Notes under the pieces: generated by a model
Told to the model about the DNA's origin: nothing
Databases searched by the model: none
The model's input: only the letters and a program-made list of their open reading frames with translations
Translations under genes and position numbers: made by a program
Origin: Thermoplasmata archaeon
Lineage (GTDB): Archaea; Thermoplasmatota; Thermoplasmata; RBG-16-68-12; JAJISG01
Direction: 5' to 3'
Assembly (NCBI GenBank): GCA_046756285.1
Contig: JBHHWA010000001.1
Span: 1-25,487, forward strand
DNA length: 25,487 nucleotides
Shown: piece by piece, positions 831 to 20,564 of the stretch
Layout: each line of letters opens with the position of its first letter
Position numbering within the stretch: position 1 is the stretch's first letter

Positions 831-3800
831 ATGGCCAGGCTCTCAGATGGGGGGCGTCGCACGCTGCAGAGACGAAAGCTGGGCCATTCCGGGGTCGCGG
901 AGGTCCTCGGGACCATCCTGGTCCTGCTGATCACCGTCATCATCTTCTCGAGCATCGTGCTCTGGGTCTTCACCCTTCCCGCGCCCAGGGCGGGGGTCAA
1001 CGTCTCCTTCAGTGGGTTCCTATCCGGCAGCTACGTGGGCGGGATTTGGAACGGGGCTGATGTTCAGCTCAACCACTTGGGAGGCCAAGACCTTCACGAG
1101 GGGAGCACGGGAGTATACCTAACGATTGACAACACGACGGAGGTCCTGAAGACGCAGGGCACCTTCTTCGACGGAGTCAGTGTCAAGGAATACGGAGTGA
1201 AGGGGCCCGATGCCACGTGGAACGTCGGAGAGACGTGGACATACCTGAACGAGAGCATCCCCCAGGATGCGAATGTCTCCGTTATGGTCGTGGACCTCGA
1301 ACGGGGCCTACTCCTCTGGCGGAAACCGCTCCTCGGAGCCCCGGGCACGCTGGCCCCCATCTTCCTCGACAAGTGGGTGGACTCTGCCCCGGCGACGGCC
1401 ACGAGGGACCCCGTAACGCCTGACGACAGGTTCACAATCTTCGCCAAAGTGACCGATCCCGACGCAGATCTCAGCCCCGAATCCGTCTGGGGCTACCTGA
1501 CCTTCGGAATCGGCGGCACGCCCCTCGGGTACGTCCAGTTGCGAGATGACGGGAACCCCTTGGTTGGAGACCTCATCGCCGGCGATGGGGTCTACACCCG
1601 TACGCTGAGTTACCAGGCCCAGAAAAAGTGGGACGGGGGCATCATCATCCTCAACGCGACCGACGACGGAGGACGAGGGACCCAGACTAGGCTCATCCTG
1701 AAGGTTCTGGACACGGGAACCTCCACGCAGGTCGGCGGTCCCGGCTCGCTCGGTTTTGGCTCTGCTACCCAGCGATACGAGATCTTCGAGGAGAGCGATT
1801 GGGATTCGCTCCGCTGGGAGGCCACGGCGACCCGGAGCTTCACGAAAGGCCAAGGCGTGGTGGTGGTCGTAGCCACGAAGAAGATCGTCAGCCCAGACTT
1901 GCGCAACACTTTCCTGCTGTGGGATCCCTCTAACAATCGGGAGGTCGTGTATAGCGACCCCCCCTACACGAACCCCGTTACAGGAAGTTCCGTTCCCTCC
2001 ACGACGGACGCCTTTGTGCTGGCGGAATTCGTCAGCGGTTTCTACGTCTACGAGTACCGTTTCACCACTACAAGCGCGGCCCACGGGTTCGACGGATTCC
2101 AGTTGCAATTCGGACACTATCCCCTCGAGTTCGAGTTGATCACAAGCCAGACCCCTGCTCCGGAAAACAGGCTCTACGTGACCGATGCCATCCAGGTGAC
2201 CGATGCCGCCGGCGGAAGCCCCGACTACCCGAGGGTGGAGACCTATGAGGACGCGGCCCACACGATCTCCGCGACGGCCTTCAACTTCACCGAGACGATG
2301 TACGTGAAGGTGTTCGTAGGGAGCACCGATGGAAGCTTTGACGTCGGAAACGTCGTCATATCCGACTTCTTTGGGAACCTTCCCATCTGGGCATCCCCGG
2401 GGACCACCCCAGTGAGCGTCGCCCTCATCAATGACACCATCAGCTACGCCTTCTCCGTGGATCTCTCCAAACCCAACCTGGATCCCTGGAACTTTGGGAC
2501 GGTCTCCTACAACCTGGCTGTTATGAATGTCCAGGACGCAGACGAGAACTATGGCCGGGTCTGGGGACAGATTCAGGTCACCGGTCCGCGCTGGAAATTG
2601 GACATCGCAATGGGCCTCTTTTCGACCGCACAACAGAACTTTGACCTGGCAATCTACGGGGACTTCTTCGACAACGTGGAAGGCTGGACCGAGTATCCCT
2701 ACGAGACCTTCCTCGCATCCCCGGGGAGGAAGGCGCCAGACAACCCTATCACATCGCAGGTATTGGGCGACCTCGACGGGGACGGTGACCTCGACATTCT
2801 CTCAGGGACGAAGAACGGCGAGGTCTGGTGGTATCGGAACCGAGATGGGAAGGCCCACTCTCTGAGTCGCACTGTCATCGACACACTCACATCGACTGTA
2901 AGCGGGGCCGCCGTCGGGCACGTCGACGCGGACACTGATCTGGATGCGGCGGTGGGGACCACCACGGGAGACGTATGGTGGTACCGGAACGACGGGTCCT
3001 GGTCTCCCAACTTCGTGGACAACACGGGGGCCGGGGTCTCCGCCCTGCAGCTAGCCGATGTCAATGGAGACGGCGCCGCGGACCTGATTGTCGGCCTCGA
3101 CGCGGGACCGAACAGCGTGCGGGTTTACCTCAACAACGGAGGGGGCGTGTTCGGGACGGTGACGACCACGGAGACCCTCATGAACGCCGACGTGTTGACC
3201 CCGGGCCACGGAACCGTGGGCGGGTCCTTCCTGCTCACAACCGCCAGCGACAACTTGTACCAGCAGGTGGAAGAGGTGGGCTCGGACGGCTTCGTAGCCG
3301 CATTCGAGGCGGCCGGACTGGCCTCGACGGTCCAAGGGACCTTCCTCGACACCTACGCGGCCGATGGCGTCGTTGAAGTCCTCACCGAGGGGGAGGCCCT
3401 TCCGCGGTACACCCTGGGCTTCCCCGGCCATCGCTACCTGTTCCCCAACATGACCGCGACCGCCTCTGAATCCTTCGAGATCCACTTCGTCGGCCACGTC
3501 AGCTCTGGCTCCGAGCCCTTCGCGGTCGGTTGGTCAAAGGACGGGCTTACCGTCGACTGGCTGAGCGGGTTGATTACCGGGCTGACACCGGGGGAGTACA
3601 TCTGGCGTCTCTCCGGAGTGGACTGGAGTGACGAAACCCTCTTTCTTCACATCATGGACGTCGACGATAGCCCGACCGATCGCAACACCGACGAGCAGCT
3701 CACGAGTCTCTCCGTCGACCTACTCTACATCTTGCAACCCGAGAGCGGCAGCATCAGCAGCCTCGCGAAGGTGTGGAGGTCGTCCACCATCCCGGGGGGG

Positions 3801-4619
3801 AAGGACGCCTACAAGTTCTTCGCGGAGGCGCATCACACCTTCAACGCCGAGAACGACCACCTCCTGCTCCAGGTCGCGGCCGCCCCCCACGGTCCCTACT
3901 ACGGCCTCCTCGTCGTCACGAAGACCACCGATGACGATGGCACCCAGAGCGTGTCCCTTCCCACCGACATCGGCGGCCTCTCCCTCTACATCCTCGCCCA
4001 GGATACGGATCGGAGGTTCGGTGCGACCGTGCTCGACACGTTCTGGTTCGACCACCTGTACTTCAAGTCCTACGAGGCAATCCCCGCCTACTGGCCCATC
4101 GGCGTGGGCGCCCCCACCCAGGGTCTCACCGTGGCGGACATCGACGGGGATGGACACCAGGACATCGTCGTCGCCACGCCGGGTACGGCCCTCCACGTCT
4201 ACTACGGCGACGGGACGGGGAAGGCCTGGCCCTCCAGTGACACGCTAACCGCTACTGGAGCCCTGCTCACGGTGGACGTCGGACTCGTGTCCGCCGACTT
4301 GGCACTCGATATCGTCGTCGGAACCGGTGATACCAAGATACTGCTCTTCACGAACGGCGGTTCCCGAGGGTCTTGGTTCCTCTCCACGATCTCCTCCCTG
4401 TCGACCACCACTACCTCGACGCTCCGCGTGGGGGATGTCGACGGGGACAATTGGGATGACGTCATCTTTGGGACGGAGAACGGCTTCCTGGTGTACCTTC
4501 GAAACGATCAGGGCACCGGCTGGAGGACGACCATCGTCATCCAGATGAACGACCGGATTGACGTGATCGACATCGGGGATGCCGACAGGGGCGTCCTGAT
4601 TCGACCCCATCCTTACTGA
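831..4619 (+). CDS. Giant type IV pilin-like surface protein, paralog 1: class III signal peptide/archaeal pilin N-terminus, stalk, FG-GAP beta-propeller with inserted nested domains (1262 aa)
   Basis: HSG|VAEVLGTILVLLITVIIFSSIVLWV pilin-type N-terminus (DUF1628-like); LRDDGNPLVGDLIAGDGVY motif; six FG-GAP repeats (e.g. LGDLDGDGDLDIL, LADVNGDGAADLIVG, VADIDGDGHQDIVVA, VGDVDGDNWDDVIFG) plus a C-terminal half repeat IGDADRG; many N-x-S/T sequons. Start uncertain (ATG831 or ACG861). Confidence 0.88.
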   Translation: MARLSDGGRRTLQRRKLGHSGVAEVLGTILVLLITVIIFSSIVLWVFTLPAPRAGVNVSFSGFLSGSYVGGIWNGADVQLNHLGGQDLHEGSTGVYLTIDNTTEVLKTQGTFFDGVSVKEYGVKGPDATWNVGETWTYLNESIPQDANVSVMVVDLERGLLLWRKPLLGAPGTLAPIFLDKWVDSAPATATRDPVTPDDRFTIFAKVTDPDADLSPESVWGYLTFGIGGTPLGYVQLRDDGNPLVGDLIAGDGVYTRTLSYQAQKKWDGGIIILNATDDGGRGTQTRLILKVLDTGTSTQVGGPGSLGFGSATQRYEIFEESDWDSLRWEATATRSFTKGQGVVVVVATKKIVSPDLRNTFLLWDPSNNREVVYSDPPYTNPVTGSSVPSTTDAFVLAEFVSGFYVYEYRFTTTSAAHGFDGFQLQFGHYPLEFELITSQTPAPENRLYVTDAIQVTDAAGGSPDYPRVETYEDAAHTISATAFNFTETMYVKVFVGSTDGSFDVGNVVISDFFGNLPIWASPGTTPVSVALINDTISYAFSVDLSKPNLDPWNFGTVSYNLAVMNVQDADENYGRVWGQIQVTGPRWKLDIAMGLFSTAQQNFDLAIYGDFFDNVEGWTEYPYETFLASPGRKAPDNPITSQVLGDLDGDGDLDILSGTKNGEVWWYRNRDGKAHSLSRTVIDTLTSTVSGAAVGHVDADTDLDAAVGTTTGDVWWYRNDGSWSPNFVDNTGAGVSALQLADVNGDGAADLIVGLDAGPNSVRVYLNNGGGVFGTVTTTETLMNADVLTPGHGTVGGSFLLTTASDNLYQQVEEVGSDGFVAAFEAAGLASTVQGTFLDTYAADGVVEVLTEGEALPRYTLGFPGHRYLFPNMTATASESFEIHFVGHVSSGSEPFAVGWSKDGLTVDWLSGLITGLTPGEYIWRLSGVDWSDETLFLHIMDVDDSPTDRNTDEQLTSLSVDLLYILQPESGSISSLAKVWRSSTIPGGKDAYKFFAEAHHTFNAENDHLLLQVAAAPHGPYYGLLVVTKTTDDDGTQSVSLPTDIGGLSLYILAQDTDRRFGATVLDTFWFDHLYFKSYEAIPAYWPIGVGAPTQGLTVADIDGDGHQDIVVATPGTALHVYYGDGTGKAWPSSDTLTATGALLTVDVGLVSADLALDIVVGTGDTKILLFTNGGSRGSWFLSTISSLSTTTTSTLRVGDVDGDNWDDVIFGTENGFLVYLRNDQGTGWRTTIVIQMNDRIDVIDIGDADRGVLIRPHPY

Positions 4620-5661: not shown

Positions 5662-6732
5662 TCAGCGGGGGCCCGAGGCGACCTTCGACCTGCGCTTCGC
5701 GGCGGAGGCCTTGGGCCGTCTCCCCTTCTTCCCTCCCTTGGGCGGTTGTCTCTTCCTCGGACTCACCACCTTCTTCTTGGGACTGACCGCCTTCTTCTTC
5801 GGCGTCGCGGTCCTCTTCTTGGGAATCGCTGCCTTCTTGAACACGAAGTAGAGCCGAGACGGTTGCTCCCCGCGACCACGAAGGGCCAAGGCACGAATGT
5901 GACAGTACACCTTCGTCCCGCTGGCCTTCGTGAAGAAGGCCTTCAACCCCTCCGACATCTCTCCGTTCACGAGGGGCTTCTTGCCCACGAAGTCCATCTC
6001 CGCGAGCAGACGACCACGGTCATCCTTGGCCTTCAGGACCCGGGCCCAGGGCTTCCCATGGAGCTGGTCCTCCTTCCACCCGAGGAACTTCGCGCTCGGT
6101 GGAGACAGCCCGCGGACCCGCATTTCGCCGTCCACCTTGATGGCCGCGTCGGCAAGGCTCTCCGCCAGGTCCTCCAACTTTCGAAAGGCGCGATGGGACT
6201 CATCCTGGAGCCGTGCGTTCTCCACGGCCGTGGCCATCTGGTTGCCGATGCCACTGACCACGTTGATTTCCTTGCTGGTGAAGTAGTGGCGGGACGTGGT
6301 GCTATCCAGGGTCATCAGCCCGACGGCCTTCCCCTTGTACACCAGGGGGACGATCAGCATGGACTTGAGTTGCCAGGCTCGGATAATCTTCTGGGGAAGG
6401 AGGTCCTCCTGGGGCAGGTCCCGGACGACGGAGGGGAGCTTCTGGGTGATCACCTTGTTCACGAGTTTGGGGACCTCGGCGTGGCTGAGCTGGCGGTCCA
6501 TGAGGACCTGGGCAAAGGCGTCCCGCGGGCAGTAGGCCACCGCCGGGATCAGGAGCTGATTCCGGGGATCGTCGAGGAAAACCGCGGCCCGGTCCACCTT
6601 CACGAGCTGCGGGGAGATGCGCACGACCGTCCGAAGCACCTCCGAGAGATCGGAGAGGTTGCTCACCATCTCCGAGACGCCGATGAGGGCCGCCAGAATT
6701 TGGGTCTCACCCAGATTCCTCTCGTCGAACAT
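5662..6732 (-). CDS. GAF + PAS-like sensor protein with a Lys/Arg-rich (S/T)PKK-repeat C-terminal tail and no kinase domain
   Basis: GAF: DLSEVLRTVV...VDRAAVFL...KSMLIVPLVYKGKAVGLMTLDS...QMATAVENARL. PAS-like: LAESLADAAIKVDGEMRV...FLGWKEDQLHGKP. The last 58 aa contain 25 K/R and no D/E. Confidence 0.85.
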   Translation of the reverse strand: MFDERNLGETQILAALIGVSEMVSNLSDLSEVLRTVVRISPQLVKVDRAAVFLDDPRNQLLIPAVAYCPRDAFAQVLMDRQLSHAEVPKLVNKVITQKLPSVVRDLPQEDLLPQKIIRAWQLKSMLIVPLVYKGKAVGLMTLDSTTSRHYFTSKEINVVSGIGNQMATAVENARLQDESHRAFRKLEDLAESLADAAIKVDGEMRVRGLSPPSAKFLGWKEDQLHGKPWARVLKAKDDRGRLLAEMDFVGKKPLVNGEMSEGLKAFFTKASGTKVYCHIRALALRGRGEQPSRLYFVFKKAAIPKKRTATPKKKAVSPKKKVVSPRKRQPPKGGKKGRRPKASAAKRRSKVASGPR

Positions 6733-8859: not shown

Positions 8860-8935
8860 GCTTCCCCATCCGCCGACCGGCTAAAGGTTGACGCGTCGCG
8901 AACCTTCTTTAACACGCCCTTCCATCCGGGGCGGA

Positions 8936-10387
8936 ATGCGGGAGGACCTTCTCTCACTCGCCATGGAGTCGGGCGTCCTCCTGGAACCCGAGTTGGCGGA
9001 CTACCTCGCGGGGCGCGCCCACCCCGTCGATAGCCTGCTAGCCATCCTAGACGCGGTGAACCCTCGCCCCCTGGTCCTCACGCTGGAGGAGATCCGGGCC
9101 CTGAACCCGGTGCTTCCTGAGTCTCAGGCCACGCCCGCCTCCGCGCCCGTTGCGGCCCGTATGCGACGCGACCGATCCGGGACCCGCCGGGAGGACCACG
9201 ATCCCGACGTGGTCGTCCTCCAAGACATCACCGGCCGCTCCACATGCACCGGAGAGATGCGGGACTTCTCCCGCTACTTCGACCACCGGTACAAGGCCCT
9301 CTCCTCTCTCCTGCGGGGGAGGCGGGAACTCGTGGGGGCCGTGTCCATCAGCCGCGCCCTCCGCATGGCCCGGGAGGTCCGCGTGATCGGCATCGTCCAG
9401 TCCGTGAAGCGGACCCGGACGGGGAACTACCTGCTCCTCATCGAGGACCAGGAGGCGTCCTGTCAGGTCTTGGTCCCGAGCGAGGGTCCCGGTGTCGACG
9501 GCGCCCCCGTGCCTGACGAGGTCCTCGGGGTCGTGGGTCGCCCCTGGAAGGACGGCATCCTTCTCGCCGAAGAGATCGTGCGGCCGGACATACCCGCCTC
9601 CCACGCCTTCCGCGGGGCGGACGAGGCTGTCAGTGCCGCCTTCATCTCCGACATCCACGTGGGAAGCCGCCTGTTCCTCCGGGACAAGTGGGACCGATTC
9701 GTCCGCTGGTTGGAGACCGAGGAGGCCTCCCGGATCAAGTACCTCGTCGTCGTGGGCGACGTCGTCGATGGCATCGGGGTCTACCCGCGACAAGACGAGG
9801 ACCTGGCCGTGGATGACGTGTACCGGCAGTACGAGGAGGTCGCCGACATGCTGGGCGCCCTCCCGGACGACCTGCAGGTGATCGTTCTCCCGGGCAATCA
9901 CGACGCGACGCGTCCTGCCGAGCCCCAGCCCGCGCTGTCTGAGGCAATCCAGAAAGCCTTCCCCGACGGGGTCCTGTTCGTCGGCAATCCGGCCCTCCTC
10001 CGCCTCCACGGCGTCGACGTGCTCTGCTATCACGGCAAGAGCATGGACGACCTGGTGACGAGCATCCCGGGCGTCACCTACGACCGTCCTCTGGCAGGGA
10101 TGGTGGAGATGCTGAAGCGGCGCCACCTGGCCCCCTCATACGGGGGCAAGACGCCGCTGGCGCCGGAACGAGCCGACCACCTGATCGTCGACCCTCCCCC
10201 CTCTGTCTTCGCCACGGGCCACGTCCACGGGTTCGGGATCGGGGAGTACCGGGGCATCCGCCTCCTTAACGCCTCGACCTGGCAGGCGCAGACCGCCTTC
10301 CAGCGGATGCACAACATCACGCCCAAGCCGGGGATGGTCCCTACTGTGGACCTCCAGACCGGGGAGGCCTTCGCCCAGGCCTTCTGA
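8936..10387 (+). CDS. polB: DNA polymerase D small subunit DP1 (3'-5' exonuclease)
   Basis: OB-fold region (VRVIGIVQSV...LLIED) and phosphoesterase motifs SDIHVG, GDVVDG, PGNHD, YHG, GHVH, plus HLAPSYG. ATG8936 preferred (TTTAAC about 28 nt upstream) over TTG8888. Confidence 0.95.
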   Translation: MREDLLSLAMESGVLLEPELADYLAGRAHPVDSLLAILDAVNPRPLVLTLEEIRALNPVLPESQATPASAPVAARMRRDRSGTRREDHDPDVVVLQDITGRSTCTGEMRDFSRYFDHRYKALSSLLRGRRELVGAVSISRALRMAREVRVIGIVQSVKRTRTGNYLLLIEDQEASCQVLVPSEGPGVDGAPVPDEVLGVVGRPWKDGILLAEEIVRPDIPASHAFRGADEAVSAAFISDIHVGSRLFLRDKWDRFVRWLETEEASRIKYLVVVGDVVDGIGVYPRQDEDLAVDDVYRQYEEVADMLGALPDDLQVIVLPGNHDATRPAEPQPALSEAIQKAFPDGVLFVGNPALLRLHGVDVLCYHGKSMDDLVTSIPGVTYDRPLAGMVEMLKRRHLAPSYGGKTPLAPERADHLIVDPPPSVFATGHVHGFGIGEYRGIRLLNASTWQAQTAFQRMHNITPKPGMVPTVDLQTGEAFAQAF

Positions 10388-11170: not shown

Positions 11171-14100
11171 TTAGGCGGAGGGATCGATAACTATGCCGCG
11201 ATCCACGTCCCCGACGTCGATGCTATAGATCCGAGTTCCGAGTTGCTCGATCACGATGATCTTCCAGACGACCCCTTTATCATGGCGATACCAGCGGATG
11301 TACCCATCCTCCGTGGCGATAACGATGTCGTCCCAGTAGTCCCCATCGATGTCGGCCACGCGGAGGCTGCGCACGTCGTCTTGGTTCGTGTGAATGAGCG
11401 TGCGGGTCCAGGTGCCGTCGTTGGCCCACCAGTAGACCCGGTTGTCTTGGGTCCCTGCCGCGATGTCGTAGGTGGAGTCGGCGTCTAAGAAGCCGACGTC
11501 GACGGCGTTGACCCTGCCCGTGGCCGCCAAGCTGACGGAACCCCAGGCAGGGGCGTATAAGACACGGGCCGTGCTGCCCGCCGCGACCACGATGTCGTTG
11601 TCTCCATCGCCGTCCATGTCAGCCACGGCGAGGTCCTCCACCTGGGGACCGACGTGGATCACCTCTTCGTCAGGGAGCGTAATGAAGCGCCGCACGAAGA
11701 TGTGGTCCACGTAGACGGCGTCCAGGTCCGTGGCGTTCGGATCCCGGTTCGTGTCCCGCACCCGCAGGTAGAGAGGCGCGCCTCCAATGATTGTCGGGAG
11801 ATTCGCCGTCTGGTACTCGTTGTCATCCACGGTCTTCGTCACGGTGATGAGCGTAGACCACGGCCCGGCCGGGGCGAGAGAGCCCTCGACGACGAAATCG
11901 TCGAATTCGCTGTTGAGGGTGTGGTGGGCCTCCACGAAGAGCTTGTATGCGTCCCCACCCGCGCCCACGGGGAAGGACCGCCACTGATGCTCCAAACGGC
12001 TCGTCGTGCCCTGCAGGCCGATAACCACGACTACGACCTGGTCGAGAGAGATCCGGGAGGCCATGCTGTCTGTGGCCGAATCCAGGTTGGACATGTCTGT
12101 GTCTTGGAACACGATGTAAAGGTCACCACCGCCAAATCCGGCGGCGCTCAGGTCATAGATCTTCAGTGTCTCCGTGGTTTCCGTTAGGGTGCCCAAGACC
12201 GAAACACCGCCGGCCCCGACCTTGTAACCAATCTCGAAGGCTTCCGATCCATCCCCCTCGCTAATGAAGCCGCTGACGACGAGGAACGCCCGATCGGTCG
12301 GGCCGAGGGGCGCGACATTCCCCATGACGTACTGGTGCCCTGGTTCGGCGCCCCCCGTGCTGTTCCGCATGAGGTAAAGGTCGTCCTCGAACCACCAAAA
12401 CGCGTCGTAGAACTCCTCCTGCAGCTCCTCGTACACGCCGTCATCCGCGTACGTGTCCAGGTAGCTCCCAGAGAAGACGACGTCGAACTCGGAGAGGATC
12501 TCGTTAACGGGGACGTAAAAGTCCCACACCTCGCCCGGGCCGAGGACCTCCTCGATGGCCTCGTACGTGTTGTCCGACACACGCGTGTCCGCGACGGTCC
12601 CGGTGATGTTCCCAAACACCGGCATGTCCGTTTCGAGCGTGTAGTCGGCCGTCAGTTGTGTGCCAAAGACGCCAAACCCGTTGTTACGGTAGATGATGAC
12701 GTCCCCGCCGTCCGTCCCCGCGACGATGTCGTTGAATCCGTCGCCTCCCGCAGGGTAGACGTCGGCGAGCTTGACCACGTTGATGCCCGGTCCCAGGTTG
12801 GCGACGAGGCTCGGGGTCCAGTCGCCGTCGTTGGAGTAGGTCCAAATCTCCCCGGCGCTGGTCCCGATCACGATGTCGTTGTCGGAGTCCCGATCGATGA
12901 GCCCGATCGCTACCGCCTCCACGCTGTCCGCCAGGTTGTCGATTTCGAAGCGGGTCCATTGGCTCCCATCGCCCAAGGTGTTCCGATACCAGAGGACACG
13001 CCCGACCTCGAGTCCGAAGACCGCATCCAGGTCGCTGTCCTCATCCAAGTCTCCGAGGGCCACATCCAGGAAGTCTCCGCCCCCGAAGGGCGGGCTGCCC
13101 CCGCAGAACCAGAGGAAGCAGTCTCTCCGGAAGGACTCCATGACGGTCCGACTCCAGGCCCCGTCATTCTCGTAGAACGTGGCGTACCAGGTCTCGTCGT
13201 TGCCGAAGAGGAAGAACGTGACTTCGTTCAGGGCCGCGATGGCGTCCAGATCCCAGCGGGCCCCACGGACGATGACCTGGGCAGTGAGCGCGTACTCCTC
13301 GTTGAAGTCGGCGATGCGCTTGATGCGGAAGCCGTAGGCGTTGGTCCCGAAGAGCCAGGGATCCAGGTTCGTGGTCGAGAGGTCGACGTTGAAACGGTAG
13401 GAACGGGTGTCGTTGACCGCGCCCGGGCTCACGGGGTCGTTGCCGGGCGTGGCCCAGACCTGGACACCACTCTCATAGTCCGAGATGACCACGTCGCCAA
13501 AGATGAAGCCGGCGTCCGTGTCCCGGACCGTGACTCGGACGTACATTCTGTCTGTCGTGTTGAATGTGTTCGTTGGCTGCGTGTGGGCCGCGTCCGCGAA
13601 GAACTCGACCTTCGGATAGTCGGGCGCGCTGCCATTCTGTTCCGTCACCAGGATGGAATCAACGGTGGCGAACCGGTTGTTGGGGGGAGGTACGTTGTTG
13701 GCCCGGATCTCCATCGACACGGAGTGCGGCCCAACGACCAGCTGGACGCCATCCCATCCGTACGCACTGGAGTTCGTGCTGAAGCGGTGCTCGTAAACGT
13801 AGAAGCCTCCCACGAAGCCGAGGAAGGTGAAGGCTCGCGTGCTGGAGGGAAGGGAGGTCTGTGTCACGGGATCGTTGTATGGGGCGAAGCTGTAGACCTC
13901 CGGCCTCTGGGGGAGCCCCGAGGGGGAATAGAGGAACACGTCGTTTTGGAGATCGGCGTTCTTCAGCTTCTGGCTGGCCACGACGATGACGACGGTCTCT
14001 CCCTTCCGGAAGGTTCGGGTTCCGTTGGCGTTGTAGCCGTTGGTGTCCCACTCCGTCGCGTTGAAGATGTCATACAGCTGGAGGTCGCTCTCGAGGGCCA

Positions 14101-14986
14101 GGCCCTCGGGGCCCTTGAAGGGGAGTCCCCCGCCCAAGTTCAGGACCTCGAAGATGAGGCGCGTCTGCGCTTCGCGGCCGCCCTGGTCCGTGGCGTTGAG
14201 AATGATGATGCCCCCATCCCAGGTCTGCAGCGCGGCGAAGCTCAGGGCCCGACTGAAGACCCCATCTCCCGCGAGGGCGTCTCCGACGTTCGGGTCCCCG
14301 TTGTCCAGGAGCTGGACGTAGCCAAGGGGGGCGCCGAACCCGAAGGTGATGTAGCCCCAGACGGAGGCCGCGTCCAGGTCCCCATCCGGGTCCCCGACGC
14401 GGGCGTAGATCGCAAAGGTATCGTCCACGCCCACGGGGTCGCGGCTCGGGGTCGAGGGCTCCGAGTCAACCCACTTCTCCAGGAAGACGGGCAGGCGCTC
14501 CCCGCCCTCGCCCAGGAGGATCTGGTCCCAAATGACCGTCCCACGGACGACGTCCACGACCAAAACCGACACCTGGGCGGTACGGTTGATGGTCTCGTTC
14601 TCGTAAAACCACGTCTCCCCGATATTCCAGTGGATGTCGGGGCCATCAACGCCGTAGGGCTTCACGCTCACCCCGTCGAAGTGATTGCCCTGCGTCTTGA
14701 GCGTATGAGTGGTCCCGTCGATGGTGAGGTAGACCCGCGTGTTCGTATCGAGCAGGTCGTCGCCCCCGAGGTGGGTCAGGTTGACGTAGGCGCCGGCCCA
14801 GGATCCGGCCACGTACCGCCCCTCGAGGCCGCCATCGATGCCGGCATTCCCCGCGGCCCGGGGCGCGGGGAGGGTGAAGACCCAGAGAACGATGGTGGAG
14901 AAGATGACGACCGTGATCAGGAGGATGAGAATGGTTCCAATGACCTCTGAGACTCCACGATGGTCCAGAGGTCTCCGCGGCAGCAC
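11171..14986 (-). CDS. Giant type IV pilin-like surface protein, paralog 2: class III signal peptide, stalk, FG-GAP propeller with nested insert (1271 aa)
   Basis: GTG start with GGAGGAG SD; HRG|VSEVIGTILILLITVVIFS; LLDNGDPNVGDALAGDGVF; FG-GAP repeats LGDLDEDSDLD, IGLIDRDSDND, LADVYPAGGDGFND, VADMDGDGDND, VGFLDADSTYD, VADIDGDYWDD, and half repeat VGDVDRG. Confidence 0.9.
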   Translation of the reverse strand: MLPRRPLDHRGVSEVIGTILILLITVVIFSTIVLWVFTLPAPRAAGNAGIDGGLEGRYVAGSWAGAYVNLTHLGGDDLLDTNTRVYLTIDGTTHTLKTQGNHFDGVSVKPYGVDGPDIHWNIGETWFYENETINRTAQVSVLVVDVVRGTVIWDQILLGEGGERLPVFLEKWVDSEPSTPSRDPVGVDDTFAIYARVGDPDGDLDAASVWGYITFGFGAPLGYVQLLDNGDPNVGDALAGDGVFSRALSFAALQTWDGGIIILNATDQGGREAQTRLIFEVLNLGGGLPFKGPEGLALESDLQLYDIFNATEWDTNGYNANGTRTFRKGETVVIVVASQKLKNADLQNDVFLYSPSGLPQRPEVYSFAPYNDPVTQTSLPSSTRAFTFLGFVGGFYVYEHRFSTNSSAYGWDGVQLVVGPHSVSMEIRANNVPPPNNRFATVDSILVTEQNGSAPDYPKVEFFADAAHTQPTNTFNTTDRMYVRVTVRDTDAGFIFGDVVISDYESGVQVWATPGNDPVSPGAVNDTRSYRFNVDLSTTNLDPWLFGTNAYGFRIKRIADFNEEYALTAQVIVRGARWDLDAIAALNEVTFFLFGNDETWYATFYENDGAWSRTVMESFRRDCFLWFCGGSPPFGGGDFLDVALGDLDEDSDLDAVFGLEVGRVLWYRNTLGDGSQWTRFEIDNLADSVEAVAIGLIDRDSDNDIVIGTSAGEIWTYSNDGDWTPSLVANLGPGINVVKLADVYPAGGDGFNDIVAGTDGGDVIIYRNNGFGVFGTQLTADYTLETDMPVFGNITGTVADTRVSDNTYEAIEEVLGPGEVWDFYVPVNEILSEFDVVFSGSYLDTYADDGVYEELQEEFYDAFWWFEDDLYLMRNSTGGAEPGHQYVMGNVAPLGPTDRAFLVVSGFISEGDGSEAFEIGYKVGAGGVSVLGTLTETTETLKIYDLSAAGFGGGDLYIVFQDTDMSNLDSATDSMASRISLDQVVVVVIGLQGTTSRLEHQWRSFPVGAGGDAYKLFVEAHHTLNSEFDDFVVEGSLAPAGPWSTLITVTKTVDDNEYQTANLPTIIGGAPLYLRVRDTNRDPNATDLDAVYVDHIFVRRFITLPDEEVIHVGPQVEDLAVADMDGDGDNDIVVAAGSTARVLYAPAWGSVSLAATGRVNAVDVGFLDADSTYDIAAGTQDNRVYWWANDGTWTRTLIHTNQDDVRSLRVADIDGDYWDDIVIATEDGYIRWYRHDKGVVWKIIVIEQLGTRIYSIDVGDVDRGIVIDPSA

Positions 14987-15069
14987 TCGAGCTCCTCCCA
15001 GGAAGGAGGCTTGTTTGCGCTGGCCAGCTTATTTAATCGTTCCCGCGGGATTATCGATGAAGATAGCCA
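14793..15069. repeat. 277-bp perfect direct repeat, copy 1 (promoter, SD and first 194 nt of paralog 2)
   Basis: Base-by-base comparison: identical to 17860-18136 (offset 3067). Confidence 0.93.
15026..15056 (-). promoter_or_regulatory. Promoter of paralog 2 (CGATAATC box and TTAAATAA TATA)
   Basis: Minus strand reads CGATAATC-CCGCGGG-AACG-A-TTAA-ATAA-GCT; SD GGAGGAG at 14993-14999. Confidence 0.7.
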
Positions 15070-15133
15070 CAACCCTCCGGAGCGGCGTATCCGATGGCTC
15101 TTCTGCGTTCCCCCGGGGCGACCTGGGGAGGAG

Positions 15134-15204
15134 TGCCAGTCAAGAACTTCAGGTGGCGAGGACTTGGTATCACGAACCAAATGCCCAGGGAGGAGGAGGG
15201 CCGT
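15134..15204 (+). pseudogene. Decayed duplicate of the signal-peptidase promoter and first 8 codons
   Basis: TGCCAGTCAAGAACTT matches 18201 TGCCAGTAAAGAAGTT (offset 3067). ATGCCCAGGGAGGAGGAGGGCCGT (MPREEEGR) matches 18247 ATGCCCAAGGAGGAGGCACGCCGT (MPKEEARR) at 20/24 nt. The ORF stops at TAG 15241-15243. Confidence 0.75.
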
Positions 15205-15239
15205 ATGCGGGGGAGGGCCTCCACTCCGAGAAGTGCTTG

Positions 15240-18053
15240 TTAGGGCGGCTCGGACCGCCGAATGGCGATCCCTCGGTCCACGTCGCCGATATCCAGCGAG
15301 TTGATGTTCTTGCCGAGATCAGCGATCCACTGGGTGGACCAGGAGATCCCCTTATCGTGGCGATACCAGAGGATATCTCCCGTCTCGGTGCCGACAAGGA
15401 CGTCGTCCCAGAAGTCCCCGTCGATGTCCCCGACCCGTAGGGTATAGACCTTGTCCGCCGAAGGGACTTGGTTGATCGCCGTGCGGTCCCAGGAGCCGTC
15501 GTTGGCAAACCAATGGACGAAGCCCAGTTCATTGCCCGTGACCACGTCCAGAGTCTCGTCGCCGTCGATATGGCCCACGTCCACGGCGAGGACGAGGGAC
15601 CCCGCCGATAGTCTCGCAGAGGAACCCCAACCGGGGCCGTAGGCGACGATGGCATCGGAGCCTCTGGCCAGCACGATGTCATTGTGCCCGTCGCCGTCCA
15701 CGTCGGCCACCGTCAGGTCCTTGATTTCCGCTCCCACCCCGAAGGCCTGGGAGGTCGGGAAGTCACCGAGGCCGTCGTTCTCGTAGATTCGGAGGAAACC
15801 ACTCTTCATCCCCGCCACGATGTCGTTGAACCCGTCGCCCGTGACGTCCGCCAGCTTGATCTCCACGACCTCACTGCCGAGATCCGCCACGAGGGTGCGG
15901 CTCCAGACCCCCGTGTTATAGTAGGCATAGATCTGGCCGAGGACATTGCCCGTCACCACGTCGTTGTCCGTATCCCGGTCGATGCGGCCCGCGTCGACGG
16001 TCCATAAGGCCACGCCCTGGTCGTCAATCTGTATGCGCTGCCAGAAGTTACCCGCTCCGTCCAAGTTTCTGTACCAGAAGAGGGGGGCCACTTCGGCGGC
16101 AGTGACGGCGTCCAGGTCCCCATCCTCGTCCATATCGGCCAAGGTGATGTCGTGGAACGGCCCGCGGCCCCAGGGCGGGTCCGGATCCATGGGCGTGGAC
16201 TGATGGTACTCGATGAGATAGACCGCCCATGGGGGGATGTTCTCGAAGAAGAGGGCATACCACTTCTGGTCGAAGATGGGGTGGCCGAACTCCTCGTTGG
16301 CGGTGACGACGTCCAGCTTCCAACGCGGACCCTGGACCGTCACCTGAGCCGCGAGGGCGTACACCTCGTTGCCATCTCGAATCTCCTTGATACGGAACCC
16401 GTAGGAGTTGATTCCCGGCAACCATGCATCCGCGTTGTTGTTCGAGAGGTCTACAGAGAACGTGTAGTTCCGGATGTCCAGGATGGACAGTGGGCCGATG
16501 GGATCGACACCTGGGGTCGCCCAGATCTGAACGCCGCCGAAGTAGTCGGAGACGAACACGTCTCCGGCGCTCACGGACAGGTCTGTCTCCCGAACGGTGA
16601 CCTTCACGTACATCACGTCCGTGTAGTTGAAGCTCGTCGCTTGTTGGGTGTAGCCCGCGTCCTTGTAGAACGTGAGTCGGGGATAGTCGGGAGAGCCACC
16701 CGCGTCGTCCGTGACGGTGATGGTGTCTGTGGTCGCAAACCGGTTCAGAGGAGGGCCCGCGATGGAGGACTTCAGCTCGATGGTCAGGGGGTACTGCCCG
16801 TAGGCCAGCTGGACCCCGTCGAACCCGGCGTCCGCCGATGTGGTGCTGAACCGGTGCTCGTACACGTAGTAGTCGCCCACGAACTCCACGAAAGAGAACG
16901 CCTTCGTGCTGGAGGGGGTGGTCGTCTCCCCCACGGGCTCGTTATACGGCGGGTCACTATACACGAGGGGGGTGAGCGGGACCACCGAGGGATCGTGCAT
17001 GAAGAAGTCGTTCTTGAAATCCAAGTCCCGTAGGGTCTGGCTCGCCACGACAACCACCACCGTTTGTCCCTTGACGAAGGTTCGCGTGCTCGTGGCATTC
17101 CAGCGGTTGGCATTCCAGTCCGACTCCTCATAAATGTCGAAGCGCTGGACACTCGAGGCGAAGGTCAGGGCCACGGGCCCCGCGGGGTCTGGGATGCTCC
17201 CGGTGTCCACGACCCGGAGAGTGAGGCGCGTCTGCGCTTCGCGGCCGCCCTGGTCCGTGGCGTTAAGGATGATGATCCCCCCATCCCAGCTCAGCATGGC
17301 GGCGAAACTCAGTGAACGACTGAAGACTCCATCTCCGGCCAGGGCGTCTCCGATGTTGGGATCCCCGTTGTCCAGCAGCTGCACGTAGCCAAGCGGCCCG
17401 CCGAATCCGAAGGTCAGGTACCCCCAAACGGAGGCCGGATTGAGGTCCCCATCGGGGTCCCCGACCCGGGCGTAGATCGCGAAGGTGTCGTCCACGGCCA
17501 CGGGATCGCGGCTCAGCGTCGAAGGCTCTGAATCGAACCACTTCTCCAGGAAGACGGGCAGGTGCTCCCCGCCCTCGCCCAAGAGGATTTGGTCCCAGAC
17601 GACCGTTCCGCGGACCACGTCCGCGACCAAAACGCCGACCTCCGCGGTGATGGGGATCGTCTCGTTCTCGTAGGTCCACGTCTCCCCGATATTCCAGTGG
17701 ACGTCGGGACCATCGACGCCGTACGGCTTTACGCTCACGCCGTCAAAGTGACTTCCTTGGGTCTTGAGCGTGTGCGTAGTCCCGTCGATGGTGAGGTAGA
17801 CACGAGTGTTTGGATCCAGCAGATCATCCCCGCCAAGGTGCGTGAGGTTGACGTAGGCCCCGGCCCAGGATCCGGCCACGTACCGCCCCTCGAGGCCGCC
17901 ATCGATGCCGGCATTCCCCGCGGCCCGGGGCGCGGGGAGGGTGAAGACCCAGAGAACGATGGTGGAGAAGATGACGACCGTGATCAGGAGGATGAGAATG
18001 GTTCCAATGACCTCTGAGACTCCACGATGGTCCAGAGGTCTCCGCGGCAGCAC
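15240..18053 (-). CDS. Giant type IV pilin-like surface protein, paralog 3: same architecture but an uninterrupted FG-GAP propeller (937 aa)
   Basis: N-terminus identical to paralog 2; six consecutive FG-GAP repeats plus half repeat IGDVDRG; lacks the ~310-330 aa insert. Confidence 0.9.
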   Translation of the reverse strand: MLPRRPLDHRGVSEVIGTILILLITVVIFSTIVLWVFTLPAPRAAGNAGIDGGLEGRYVAGSWAGAYVNLTHLGGDDLLDPNTRVYLTIDGTTHTLKTQGSHFDGVSVKPYGVDGPDVHWNIGETWTYENETIPITAEVGVLVADVVRGTVVWDQILLGEGGEHLPVFLEKWFDSEPSTLSRDPVAVDDTFAIYARVGDPDGDLNPASVWGYLTFGFGGPLGYVQLLDNGDPNIGDALAGDGVFSRSLSFAAMLSWDGGIIILNATDQGGREAQTRLTLRVVDTGSIPDPAGPVALTFASSVQRFDIYEESDWNANRWNATSTRTFVKGQTVVVVVASQTLRDLDFKNDFFMHDPSVVPLTPLVYSDPPYNEPVGETTTPSSTKAFSFVEFVGDYYVYEHRFSTTSADAGFDGVQLAYGQYPLTIELKSSIAGPPLNRFATTDTITVTDDAGGSPDYPRLTFYKDAGYTQQATSFNYTDVMYVKVTVRETDLSVSAGDVFVSDYFGGVQIWATPGVDPIGPLSILDIRNYTFSVDLSNNNADAWLPGINSYGFRIKEIRDGNEVYALAAQVTVQGPRWKLDVVTANEEFGHPIFDQKWYALFFENIPPWAVYLIEYHQSTPMDPDPPWGRGPFHDITLADMDEDGDLDAVTAAEVAPLFWYRNLDGAGNFWQRIQIDDQGVALWTVDAGRIDRDTDNDVVTGNVLGQIYAYYNTGVWSRTLVADLGSEVVEIKLADVTGDGFNDIVAGMKSGFLRIYENDGLGDFPTSQAFGVGAEIKDLTVADVDGDGHNDIVLARGSDAIVAYGPGWGSSARLSAGSLVLAVDVGHIDGDETLDVVTGNELGFVHWFANDGSWDRTAINQVPSADKVYTLRVGDIDGDFWDDVLVGTETGDILWYRHDKGISWSTQWIADLGKNINSLDIGDVDRGIAIRRSEPP

Positions 18054-18136
18054 TCGAGCTCCTCCCAGGAAGGAGGCTTGTTTGCGCTGGCCAGCTTATT
18101 TAATCGTTCCCGCGGGATTATCGATGAAGATAGCCA
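17860..18136. repeat. 277-bp perfect direct repeat, copy 2 (promoter, SD and first 194 nt of paralog 3)
   Basis: Identical to 14793-15069. Confidence 0.93.
18093..18123 (-). promoter_or_regulatory. Promoter of paralog 3 (identical to that of paralog 2)
   Basis: Lies within the 277-bp repeat. Confidence 0.7.
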
Positions 18137-18214
18137 GGGTGCTCGGGAGCCTACTCCTCCAAGTCCCCCGTTTGGTGCTATGGGGCGGTGAAGGGACCGA
18201 TGCCAGTAAAGAAG

Positions 18215-18220
18215 TTTTAA
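18215..18220 (+). promoter_or_regulatory. TATA box (TTTTAA) of the signal peptidase gene
   Basis: Begins 32 nt upstream of ATG18247, preceded by purine-rich AAAGAAG (BRE-like). Confidence 0.6.
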
Positions 18221-18246
18221 GAGGCCAGTGCCCGCTATGACGAGCA

Positions 18247-19194
18247 ATGCCCAAGGAGGAGGCACGCCGTCTCCCACCCTCTCTTGTCAGCTTCCTGCGG
18301 GACCTAGCCGTGGCCTTCCTCCTCGTGGCCATCGTCTTTGCCGCCCTCTTCGCTTTCGCCCGCACCTGGCCCCCCATGGTCGTGGTGGAGAGCGGCAGCA
18401 TGCAGCACAGCAACACGGAGAGCTTCATCGGCGTGGTGGACACGGGGGACATCGTGATCGTCCAGACGGCCCCCCTCCGGCAGGACATCGCCACCTACGT
18501 GCAGGGCCGCGCCGCCGGCTATACGACCTACGGCGACTTCGGGGATGTGATCGTTTTCCAGGATCCCGATCCCAGGGCCCCGGAGGGGAGGTGGATCATT
18601 CATCGGGCCTTGGTCTTCCTGGCCTGGAACGAGACGGCCATGGGCTTCGACATTCCTACCCTCGAATCCCTGGAGCGGGGTATTGACTGGGACTCCAGCG
18701 CGGCCACCCCGTTCGGTCTCGGCCCGGGCGATTCCGTGGTCCTGATGGGCGTCGGTTTCCGCGAACGCGATCTGACCCTCCGGATCGACGACTTCTACGG
18801 CGACCGGGACCCCCAGGACTGTCCTGCTTCCTGCGAAGGATACGTCACGATGGGGGATAGAAACGCCCCCACCTTCGACGATGACCTCGTCTTCCAGGGT
18901 CTCGTCCTTGGGCGCGCGCGGGGAGAGCTCCCGTGGTTCGGTCTCCTGAAGCTCACCTTCGCAGGCCCCTTCGTGTGGGGCGATTCCGAGGCCCCCGCCA
19001 ACAGCTGGACGGCCCTGACCGTCTCCCTAATTCTCCTCATCGCCGGTCCCATTGGCCTCGATGTCGGGCTCTCCCTCTTGGCTGCCCGCCGGAAAGAGGC
19101 CGAGTCGGACAACCCCGGGGAGGGCGAGCCGGACGCGAACCCGCATGGGGAGGAGGGGCCGCCGGAGGAAGGGGAGGATCCGTCGGCTAAATGA
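18247..19194 (+). CDS. Signal peptidase I, S26 family (archaeal Sec11-like, Ser-His type)
   Basis: N-terminal TM, PPMVVVESGSM (catalytic Ser), IIHRA (His), VTMGDRN, C-terminal TM and acidic tail. Confidence 0.9.
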   Translation: MPKEEARRLPPSLVSFLRDLAVAFLLVAIVFAALFAFARTWPPMVVVESGSMQHSNTESFIGVVDTGDIVIVQTAPLRQDIATYVQGRAAGYTTYGDFGDVIVFQDPDPRAPEGRWIIHRALVFLAWNETAMGFDIPTLESLERGIDWDSSAATPFGLGPGDSVVLMGVGFRERDLTLRIDDFYGDRDPQDCPASCEGYVTMGDRNAPTFDDDLVFQGLVLGRARGELPWFGLLKLTFAGPFVWGDSEAPANSWTALTVSLILLIAGPIGLDVGLSLLAARRKEAESDNPGEGEPDANPHGEEGPPEEGEDPSAK

Positions 19195-20419
19195 GGGTCG
19201 TCTGGACCTTGGGCCGATAGCTGCGCAGCTCCATCAGCACGTCGTCGCGGGAGAGGATTCGCTTCACGTCCGGCGCCGAGACGCTGGATTGAATCTCCTT
19301 CGTCCGCCCACCACGTCCGAAGGACTTGACCTTGGCGTTGATGAGCCCCAACATGTCCAGCTCCGAGATGAGGTCCGTCACCCGTCGCTGGGTTAGCGGG
19401 CTGAGGCCGGCCCGCTTGCAGAGCTGCGAGTAGGTGTCGTAAACCTCTCCCGTCGTGAGCTTCACGATGCCCACCTCCTGCTGTAGGATGATGCCCAGGA
19501 GGATGAGCTTCGAGTGGGTGGGCAGGGAGCGCACGGCCTCGATGACCAGGTCGAGCTCGATCTTGTTCTTCGCGCGCTGGACCAGGGCCTCCGTGATGCG
19601 GCTTCGACCCTTGCGGTCCGTCAGTTCGCCGGCGACTCGGAGGAGGTCCAGGGCCCGCCGGGCGTCCCCATGCTCCTGGGCCGCCAGAGCCGCGATGAGG
19701 GGGATGACCCCGTTCTCGATGACGCCAGGGTCGAAGGCGAGTTGCGCCCGCTGCTCGAGGATGTCACCGAGCTCCTTGGCGTTGTAAGGCGGGAAGACCA
19801 TCTTCTCGTCGCTGAGCCGGCTCTTCACGCGCGGGTCGAGAAACTCCGTGAACTTCAGGTCGTTCGAGATCCCAATGAGGCTGACCTTGGCCCGATCCAG
19901 GTCGTCGTTGATCTTCGTAAGGTGGTACAACACGTCGTCGCCGCTCTTGTAGACCAGCTTGTCGATCTCGTCCAAGCAGATGACGACGACCCGCGGCGCC
20001 TCGTCAATCTTCCCGCGGAGGAGGTTGTACACCCGCTCCGTGGAGAGACCGGTGAAAGGGATGCGCTCGTCGAAGTCCTGGATGAACCGGTTTCCCACGT
20101 TCTGGAAGACCCCGTAGGGGGTGTCCACGATCTCGCAGTTGATGTAGAAGTACTCCACCCGGTCCTCGATGTCGGCCCGCCGGAACTCGTTCCCCACGTA
20201 CTTCACGACGGCCGTCTTCCCCGTCCCCGTCTTCCCGAAGATCATCACGTTGGAGGGCATCTCCCCCCGGAGGGCCGTGGCCAGAACGGAAGCCAGCTGG
20301 TTGATCTGCCGCTCCCGATGCGGGAGGCTGTCGGGAATGTAGGAAGGGCGGAGGACGTCCCTGTTCTCCCGGAAGATGGATGTCGTGCGAAGGTAGGGTT
20401 GGAAGATGTTCCCTTCCAT
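19187..20419 (-). CDS. cdc6: Orc1/Cdc6 replication initiator
   Basis: YIPDSLPHRERQI, Walker A GKTGTGKT, Walker B LDEID, DPRVKSRL, GDARRALDLLR, winged helix ISELDMLGLINAKV..GRGGRT. Start is ATG20419 or the in-frame ATG20479. Confidence 0.96.
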   Translation of the reverse strand: MEGNIFQPYLRTTSIFRENRDVLRPSYIPDSLPHRERQINQLASVLATALRGEMPSNVMIFGKTGTGKTAVVKYVGNEFRRADIEDRVEYFYINCEIVDTPYGVFQNVGNRFIQDFDERIPFTGLSTERVYNLLRGKIDEAPRVVVICLDEIDKLVYKSGDDVLYHLTKINDDLDRAKVSLIGISNDLKFTEFLDPRVKSRLSDEKMVFPPYNAKELGDILEQRAQLAFDPGVIENGVIPLIAALAAQEHGDARRALDLLRVAGELTDRKGRSRITEALVQRAKNKIELDLVIEAVRSLPTHSKLILLGIILQQEVGIVKLTTGEVYDTYSQLCKRAGLSPLTQRRVTDLISELDMLGLINAKVKSFGRGGRTKEIQSSVSAPDVKRILSRDDVLMELRSYRPKVQTTLI

Positions 20420-20564
20420 GAAGGACTCCCCTGAGAAGGCGGCTCCCCCAAAAGGTCCGCCCCCTTGGACCGACGGCATAACCCGCGTCTCTACAAAAGG
20501 CTTTGTTTCGACGGCTGCCGAACAACTTTTCTGGAGGGTCTGGCGGTACTGGCCTCGGCGGGAA

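Follow-up and report, generated by a model that had tools for sequence, protein, structure and literature searches.

Probable gene conversion at the shared 5′ end of two tandem pilin-like genes in an uncultured Thermoplasmata archaeon

Introduction

How can two neighboring genes that parted company long ago still be identical, letter for letter, across their promoters and first codons? The question is raised by contig JBHHWA010000001.1 of the Thermoplasmata archaeon assembly GCA_046756285.1, whose complete length of 25,487 base pairs (bp) was analyzed and is referred to here as the window. The contig belongs to a metagenome-assembled genome (MAG) of 1.4 Mb, spread over 346 contigs, 74% complete and with a GC content of about 63%, and the closest relatives of this source MAG are other MAGs named “Thermoplasmata archaeon.” Within the window lie two tandem paralogous genes, c1 and c2, encoding large pilin-like proteins, and each of them opens with a copy of the same 277-bp repeat, R. 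A first, sequence-only reading of this DNA had noticed the repeat and proposed that it was the product either of gene conversion or of a recombination cassette. The answer put forward below is that the repeat is probably the youngest layer of concerted evolution, by gene conversion, between two old tandem paralogues. Particular attention is paid to how far the perfect identity seen in the window is shared by contigs derived from sequencing reads.

A Perfect Repeat with Stepped Surroundings

In the window, positions 14793–15069 and 17860–18136 are the same without a single mismatch, as had first been noticed. The match is exact and maximal at 277 bp, and its offset of 3067 stays constant across the whole homologous 5′ region of c1 and c2. 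Read in the direction of the genes, each copy consists of 83 non-coding nucleotides (nt) before a GTG start codon (14986 in c1 and 18053 in c2), followed by the codons for a charged N-terminus, those for a hydrophobic helix, and 25 further codons. The non-coding portion includes the octamers TTAAATAA and GGGAGGAG, which would serve as promoter and Shine-Dalgarno-like elements, respectively. Elsewhere in its own genome, the only other trace of the repeat is an 81% match to 113 nt of a third paralogue.

Identity between the two genes decreases in steps, from 100% over the 277 bp to about 85% over 14150–14792, and then to about 60% beyond approximately +840 nt. Both edges of the tract are as sharp as the sequence-only reading had described them. 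On the coding side, 14701–14792 and 17768–17859 differ at 16 of 92 bp, with only one amino-acid change (T81P), while on the other side 15070–15133 and 18137–18200 agree at just 28 of 64 positions. Could such a run of identity arise by chance within two generally similar sequences? The homologous 5′ block is 920 nt long and contains 98 mismatches, with an identity of 84.8% outside the tract. When these mismatches were permuted 20,000 times, the longest identical run never exceeded 117 nt, which rules out chance as the source of the identity. The run in the window (277 nt) and that in the variant haplotype described below (122 nt) are both longer than those in all 20,000 shuffles.

An Old Pair with a Young 5′ End

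The ages of the different parts can be read from Nei-Gojobori estimates of synonymous (dS) and nonsynonymous (dN) divergence between c1 and c2. For codons 1–65, dS is 0.018 and dN is 0. The values are 0.88 and 0.07 for codons 66–150, 0.50 and 0.066 for codons 151–280, and 1.0–1.35 and 0.40–0.45 beyond codon 280. The duplication is therefore as old as had been supposed, with a dS of at least 1 and a dN of 0.4 in the distal part, and with a spacer between the genes that is a decayed copy of the region upstream of c2. The supposed recent homogenization of the 5′ end has also held up, since dS in the first 65 codons is far below both that of the adjoining codons and the 0.40–0.56 found over the same codons for the orthologues in two same-genus genomes.

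It might be argued that purifying selection is enough to keep promoter, signal segment and helix identical, and that recombination played no part. Conservation within the family is indeed highest in the block from −83 to −1 and in the N-terminal helix, and in Haloferax the hydrophobic domain of PilA1-6 is almost invariant (PMC4371748). However, selection on a protein or on a promoter leaves synonymous and spacer positions unfrozen, and the orthologues differ by 7–15% over the very same 277 bp. Their dS shows that synonymous sites are free to change here, so constraint cannot explain the identity, and this explanation is scarcely credible. Within the tract, the paralogues are closer to one another (100% in the window, or 95.7% in the variant haplotype) than to the four orthologues (85–93%). 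The homogenization also takes in non-coding sites, as the 83 bp upstream of the start codons are either identical or differ at 1–3 sites.

Read-Derived Contigs and the Extent of the Identity

An independent, read-derived check was made with Logan contigs (k = 31) placed on 13500–19000. These come from four public runs, X1 to X4, which are hydrothermal-vent metagenomes of one study in which the region is present. Logan contigs bridge no repeat longer than 31 nt, and the junction of an excised circle would look the same as the tandem junction. Outside the repeat, the contigs of the four runs agree with the window, and 96% of 550 words sampled from 13500–19000 are present in X1 and X2. They also uphold the tandem order. 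A single contig of X1 (17251–15040) passes from c2 through its stop codon and the spacer into the repeat. The possibility that c1 and c2 were alleles of two strains falsely joined was rejected, because three runs contain single contigs that lead from the c2 body past its stop codon, across the unique spacer, and on into the repeat. At both copies the contig starts (15040 and 18107) lie exactly 29 nt in from the upstream edge, which makes this edge a true branch point. The joint from 14317 to 17409 was put down to other organisms or to repeats, as were further joints whose sides do not exceed 30 nt.

Inside the repeat, the contigs tell a different story for the c2 copy. One contig of X1 (17731–17974), with equivalents in X2 and X3, leads from the c2-specific coding flank into the repeat and carries 10 substitutions. 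Nine of these are listed (17874, 17892, 17895, 17898, 17901, 17910, 17912, 17928, and 17934); eight of the nine fall at third codon positions, and two change an amino acid (A48T and D51E). The depth of these variant contigs is near that of c2 itself (10.2 against 15.3, 19.1 against 20.5, and 8.1 against about 10). On the upstream side, a contig of X3 (17986–18260) joins the unique DNA upstream of c2 to a repeat with substitutions at 18057, 18071, and 18079; the same three occur in X2, and only 18071 in X1. Position 17874 is A rather than G in all c2 contigs of all four runs. X3 and X4 also contain an intermediate form, in which the c2 flank and 17874A are followed by the window-like 17892G. 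Compared with c1, the variant c2 haplotype has a perfect core of 122 bp (−3 to +118) and 95.7% identity over the 277-bp block. Eight of the 12 variant bases are found in at least one orthologue, which marks the variant as a native c2 sequence and the bases of the c2 copy in the window as derived ones of c1; the bases of repeat copy 1 deviate from all four orthologues at several sites. Provided that the window haplotype is real, the donor was c1.

The sequence-only reading had named reads in which the two copies differ as evidence against it. What the contigs preserve of its account is the tandem order and the shared upstream edge; what they do not preserve is the perfection of the 277 bp, since copy 2 shows 12 differences. 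That account is thus partly contradicted, and the tract of the dominant haplotype is the 122-bp perfect core within a 95.7% block.

Was the perfect repeat then partly made during assembly? The assembler, or a polishing or gap-closing step, may have written the higher-coverage c1 sequence into c2 over 17860–17934 and 18057–18079. We give this a little less than an even chance. It concerns only the extent of the tract and is compatible with gene conversion, the biological tract then being the 122-bp core in its 95.7% block. Each of the 12 differences makes c2 more like c1, none of the contigs from the four runs has the c2 flank followed by 17874G, and the 4% of words missing from X1 and X2 is roughly what two variant patches would remove, by estimate. 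The promoter variants form a simple bubble of equal length between shared sequences, and metagenome assemblers routinely collapse such bubbles; the names of relatives' contigs point to metaSPAdes or MEGAHIT assemblies. On the other hand, the switch from c2-specific to c1-like sequence takes place inside a shared run of only 14 nt (17860–17873), which is shorter than any usual k, so that a plain de Bruijn path needs reads that carry the switch. The intermediate form in X3 and X4 shows that mosaic haplotypes exist, the source sample may lie outside the four runs, and contigs drop rare variants. On balance, the perfect 277 bp is about equally likely to represent the most recently converted haplotype or to be in part a product of assembly.

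A separate observation concerns depth. In three runs, the c2 body (15070–17859) has contigs of lower depth than c1 and the upstream flank, at a ratio of about 0.55–0.65 (15.3 against 21–27, 20.5 against 36.5, and about 10 against 18–21). Part of the population could therefore be without c2, on a measure that gives a single figure per contig with strains summed and is unreliable for copy number.

The Upstream Edge and the Mosaic Structure of c2

The reason for the sharp upstream edge can be found in the spacer J and in the relatives of the source genome. Two of these, G005 and G003, belong to the same genus, are 94–95% complete, and are syntenic on long contigs. Spacer J retains islands of the c2 upstream region, including a remnant of the first 8 codons of the divergently transcribed gene, which means that the old duplication unit extended about 250 nt upstream and that its non-coding part has decayed since. 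All four orthologues conserve about 90% of the promoter block (−83 to −1), with an abrupt onset at −83. The stretch from about −84 to −150 is only 47–56% identical to three relatives, and 78% identical to a fourth, G007. The upstream edge is thus sharp because usable homology between the paralogues ends at −83, which is also the limit of the conserved promoter block. Further out, from −350 to −186 (intergenic U and the start of the divergent gene included), the DNA upstream of c2 is 68–92% identical to that upstream of the relatives' single gene, whereas the upstream DNA of G005 and G003 matches that of c1 at only 36–62%.

G005 and G003 have just one gene at this place, made of c2-type upstream DNA and a c1-type body. 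From about +840 nt, c1 shows 85–97% nt identity to G005 and G003 and is the orthologue of their single gene; stretch by stretch, the body of this single gene is mostly 80–97% identical to c1, with a few stretches lower, against about 60% to c2. This one-gene structure, with the upstream DNA of c2 and the body of c1, occurs in three same-genus species. It is what a deletion between the repeats would leave behind, and it may equally be the ancestral state. Other arrangements are found as well. In X4, a strain about 92% identical has a c2-like stop (15241), 15 other nt, and then the repeat from 15067, so the vent samples contain tandem arrays that differ in their spacers. In G007 (locus L008, contig C110, 827–2781), the upstream DNA is 92% and the N-terminal 160 amino acids (aa) are 86% identical, and the contig ends inside the gene, whose body is only 32–36% identical to that of every other family member. 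At this locus, a conserved 5′ module stands ahead of very different bodies.

The same contrast runs through c2 itself. Its residues 1–280 are 90.7% identical to c1 and 84–88% identical to the same-genus orthologues, whereas residues 281–937 are only 50% identical to c1, their best match (57%) being a remote homologue whose N-domain reaches only 44%. In a tree of the N-domain, c2 falls in a clade with c1, G005, and G003 (support 99). In a tree of the body, c1 groups with G005 and G003 (support 100), while c2 stands outside on a long branch (0.74), and the approximately unbiased (AU) test rejects a joint body clade that includes c2 (p = 0.0015). Judged by its sequence, c2 is a mosaic, with a genus-type N-domain on a deeply divergent body.

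Could c2 instead be a recent arrival? A unit made of 5′ module, c2 body and spacer, supplied by a different lineage or by an excised circle, might have crossed over once with the conserved 5′ module of an ancestor that had a single copy, and the tract would be the heteroduplex repaired at that crossover. The body tree nests c1 of the source genome among single-copy species, as (G003,(c1,G005)), and one gain is more parsimonious than two losses, so that this nesting slightly favors a gain of c2. The c2 body is equally far from c1 and from family-level homologues, the spacer resembles the inter-copy spacer of a pre-existing array, and the relative at about 92% in X4 likewise has a c2-like gene followed by R. 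However, the N-domain and upstream DNA of c2 are of the genus type, so one and the same donor would need to be closely related for this half and distantly related for the rest. After just one crossover, the two repeats would be hybrids that differ, and conversion would still be required for 100% identity. No mobile-element genes were found nearby among the window proteins scanned. A recent insertion is accordingly held to be unlikely.

Patchy homogenization has a parallel in a distant relative. A contig of Joint Genome Institute (JGI) dataset 3300025326 carries a tandem pair (L035, 8459–12606) beside a PolD small-subunit gene, with products about 88% identical in amino acids and with patches of 98–100% nt identity amid stretches of 70–85%. 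This mosaic pair indicates that patchy homogenization of tandem copies recurs in the pilin-like family. The two L035 genes are of the short form, one of 941 aa and one, partial, resembling the 947-aa P0009 (98% match). The C-terminal 140 or so aa of P0008 and P0009 are nearly identical, and identity in the L035 pair starts at the start codon, not at the promoter.

Probable Gene Conversion Rather than a Cassette

We consider it likely that concerted evolution between c1 and c2, an old tandem pair, produced the 277-bp block as its most recent layer. Homology-dependent repair would copy the 5′ end of c1 onto c2. Upstream, the tract would be bounded at −83, where homology between the paralogues stops and beyond which a homology-dependent tract cannot pass; downstream, its edge would simply be the end point of a given tract. 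The 5′ module, made up of the promoter block from −83, leader, charged segment, helix, and N-domain, is much more similar between the genes than their age permits, in nested steps of about 60, about 85, and 100%. The end points do vary among contigs, in which 17874A is followed by window-like or by variant bases, with one or three promoter variants. As a likely consequence, both genes would keep a shared promoter and export or anchor segment while their outer parts diverge. Conversion of the 5′ module appears to hold for the window and the variant haplotype alike.

Several points weigh against this account. Gene conversion is deduced from a pattern rather than from an observed recombination intermediate or event. 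The identity over 17860–17934 and at 18057, 18071, and 18079 is contradicted by the contigs of all four runs. Weaker still, in an index search with four words on 17830–17900, three of the four words were present in each run and none of the runs had all of them, a sample too small to carry evidential weight. Data at the contig level do not resolve minority haplotypes, nor which variants go together on either side of the 122-bp core. Finally, for the 85% layer, part of the mosaic signal could come from rapid evolution of the c2 body (the branch of 0.74) and not from homogenization of the N-domain.

What of the second half of the original proposal, a recombination cassette? In this programmed form of variation, the repeats would be sites for the regulated excision, amplification, or cassette switching of a promoter-bearing 3067-bp unit. 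Direct repeats do flank a complete gene, the contig depth of the c2 body is below that of its flanks in three runs (a weak measure), and the locus is hypervariable in the genus, the body in G007 being 33% identical. In Neisseria, the pilE/pilS system relies on promoterless silent donors, and it is the variable part that is converted. The present locus resembles it in showing gene conversion between pilin-family sequences that share conserved segments. Unlike pilE/pilS, both copies here are complete, promoter-bearing, and apparently expressed, leaving no silent donors, and the part that is homogenized is the conserved 5′ end. The end points of the tract also differ between haplotypes, as would be expected if homology, and not a specific site, guided the exchange. 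Ten proteins of the window were scanned, those of c1, c2, and the adjoining genes included, and none had an integrase or recombinase domain; the window scans gave no transfer RNA (tRNA) or Rfam element, and the edges of the tract carry neither terminal inverted nor short direct repeats. A programmed system is therefore very improbable. Of the two alternatives first offered, gene conversion fits the dS values, the trees and the permutations, and the cassette finds no recombinase, tRNA, Rfam element, or terminal repeat to go with it. Whichever haplotype reading holds, this is gene conversion of the ordinary kind and no dedicated cassette mechanism. Crossing over between the repeats to yield a deletion, an amplification, or a 3067-bp circle is nonetheless mechanistically possible, as it is for any direct repeat.

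A bolder idea goes beyond gene conversion as such. It is conceivable, though we regard it as rather doubtful, that c2 haplotypes with nested conversion end points segregate in the vent population, changing over to the c1-like bases ahead of 17874, from 17874 to 17892, or past 17934, and carrying 0, 1, or 3 promoter variants. The 5′ module would then be a portable homology handle with which Thermoplasmata stack, swap, or drop very different adhesin bodies at one locus.

The Genes, Their Products, and Their Neighborhood

The coordinates of the features are collected in Table 1.

Table 1. Features of the c1/c2 locus, in window coordinates.
Feature	Position	Strand	Description
Third paralogue	831–4619	+	45% aa identity to c1
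c1	11171–14986	−	1271 aa; pilin-type N-terminus, N-domain, FG-GAP repeats with an insert of about 330 aa
Older homogenized block	14150–14792 (partner 17217–17859 in c2)	−	About 85% identical in nt, falling to about 60% at the N-domain boundary
Repeat R, copy 1	14793–15069	−	83 bp of promoter/leader and codons 1–65 of c1; apparent donor sequence
Shine-Dalgarno-like box, GGGAGGAG	14992–14999	−	Read from sequence
TATA-like element, TTAAATAA	15029–15036 (c2 copy 18096–18103)	−	About 46 nt before the start codon; read from sequence
Spacer J	15070–15239	−	From the c2 stop to R; decayed copy of the region upstream of c2; paralogue homology ends here
c2	15240–18053	−	937 aa; N-terminus and N-domain as in c1, strongly divergent body, without the insert of about 330 aa
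Repeat R, copy 2	17860–18136	−	Upstream of and into c2; c1 sequence in the window, 12 other bases in contigs (17874–17934, 18057–18079)
Intergenic U	18137–18246	.	Upstream of c2
Divergent gene	18247–19194	+	315 aa; transcribed away from c2; probably an archaeal type I signal peptidase
PolD small subunit, metallophosphoesterase, weak signal-peptidase-I homologue (the divergent gene above), Cdc6/Orc1, NAD synthase			Neighbors of c1 and c2

All three paralogues have a Pfam Pilin_N match above the cut-off together with FG-GAP-like repeats. In the c1/c2 pair, PF07790 scores 41.9 bits (c1, which also matches PF13517) and 40.7 bits against a cut-off of 25.2, and TIGR02537 scores 22.2 bits against a cut-off of 20. 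In both translations, the motif R-G|V-S-E-V-I-G precedes the hydrophobic helix. A prepilin peptidase of the Peptidase_A24 family (PF01478) was sought in the source MAG (G000, 74% complete) and in G005, G003, and G009 (94–97% complete), with no match while the controls matched, using a profile that could miss a divergent enzyme. As no PF01478 peptidase was found, the c1 and c2 proteins are called pilin-like and not pilins, and their N-terminal segment may follow another processing route or be retained as a membrane anchor. A PilB/ArlI-type ATPase is encoded elsewhere, with PF00437 above the cut-off on contigs C185, C38, and C67, unlinked to the c1/c2 locus. The product of the divergent gene has an SGSM motif and matches TIGR02228 with an E-value of 2.3e-5 and 24.3 bits, under the cut-off of 51.85 bits. 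Directly after the hydrophobic helix of the pilin-like proteins comes an A-A-G / G-N-A-G stretch, which could be a type I cleavage site.

The segment of about 330 aa that distinguishes the long proteins (residues 778–1103 of c1; 11670–12660 in the window, against about 15745 in c2) is present in c1 and in the third paralogue, and not in c2. Short forms of 941–947 aa, 47% identical to c2 (P0008 and P0009), exist in other metagenomes, so the short architecture is not unique to the source genome. The exact c2 protein, for its part, was found nowhere else when full-length relatives of c2 were searched for in the collection, and only the contig of the window carries it. A 21-nt promoter pattern gave a similar picture. 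In a scan of GTDB genomes it retrieved only the four same-genus MAGs already known and one chance match, and in a scan of JGI metagenomes three matches; these three and the chance match in a genome (L029, L032–L034) have no homology to the window.

The c1/c2 pair lies between the PolD small-subunit gene (8888–10387, plus strand) and Cdc6/Orc1 (19187–20479, minus strand). In many Euryarchaeota, the pairing of these two genes marks the neighborhood of a replication origin. A PolD small-subunit gene and an AAA_16/ATPase_2 gene also stand beside the tandem pair on L035. According to precomputed Pfam annotations, a GAF/PAS-domain gene adjoins family members on two unrelated contigs (L035, 6314–7228; L036, 914–1891). 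The GAF-PAS gene that the sequence-only reading had placed at 5662–6732 of the window may thus be a conserved neighbor of the family.

Comparison with Known Systems

Concerted evolution and gene conversion between prokaryotic paralogues have been surveyed (PMC6053082). As in the surveyed cases, a bounded tract is closer between paralogues than between orthologues, synonymous and non-coding sites included, and the trees of tract and flank conflict. What differs here is the content of the tract, namely promoter, leader, and export-signal end, and its place in two very large genes for surface proteins of an uncultured member of the Thermoplasmata; the length of the tract also appears to vary in the population.

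A second parallel is the tandem lipoprotein-like (lpl) cluster of Staphylococcus aureus, in which a conserved segment of the open reading frame (ORF) is the site of homologous recombination that shuffles the variable parts, so that arrangements differ between strains (Tsuru and Kobayashi, 2008, PMC2568036). Both loci consist of paralogous genes for surface proteins, arranged in tandem and sharing a highly conserved segment. In lpl, however, this segment lies in the middle of the ORF and two neighboring ORFs make up the evolutionary unit, whereas here the conserved part is the 5′ end with the promoter, in two tandem copies. Strain rearrangement is established in lpl, while the present locus offers only hints of it, namely the single-copy relatives, the variant with a 15-nt spacer, and the third type of body in G007.

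Within the Archaea, PilA1 to PilA6 of Haloferax volcanii share an almost invariant hydrophobic domain that has a role of its own in pilus assembly and in the regulation of motility (reviewed in PMC4371748). The likeness lies in paralogous archaeal proteins with class III-type N-termini and a near-identical helix ahead of different outer parts. The Haloferax pilins are nevertheless small and non-tandem, and their identity is at the protein level. The proteins described here have 937 and 1271 aa, their DNA is identical into the promoter, and PF01478 was not found in the source MAG or in three near-complete relatives.

Biological Meaning

No new mechanism is involved, and concerted evolution of this kind is well known in bacteria. 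The locus also carries a caution, as perfect repeats between paralogues in MAGs can overstate identity, and here read-derived contigs disagree with the window at 12 sites. If c2 haplotypes do segregate around a portable 5′ module, the locus would be an archaeal counterpart of the bacterial tandem surface-protein clusters, with variation of copy number and of the cell surface within a population. And if the homogenization is real, it would offer a clean natural case in which concerted evolution works on the regulatory and export segments of archaeal genes for surface proteins as the exposed portions move apart; the lineage concerned is represented by metagenomes alone.

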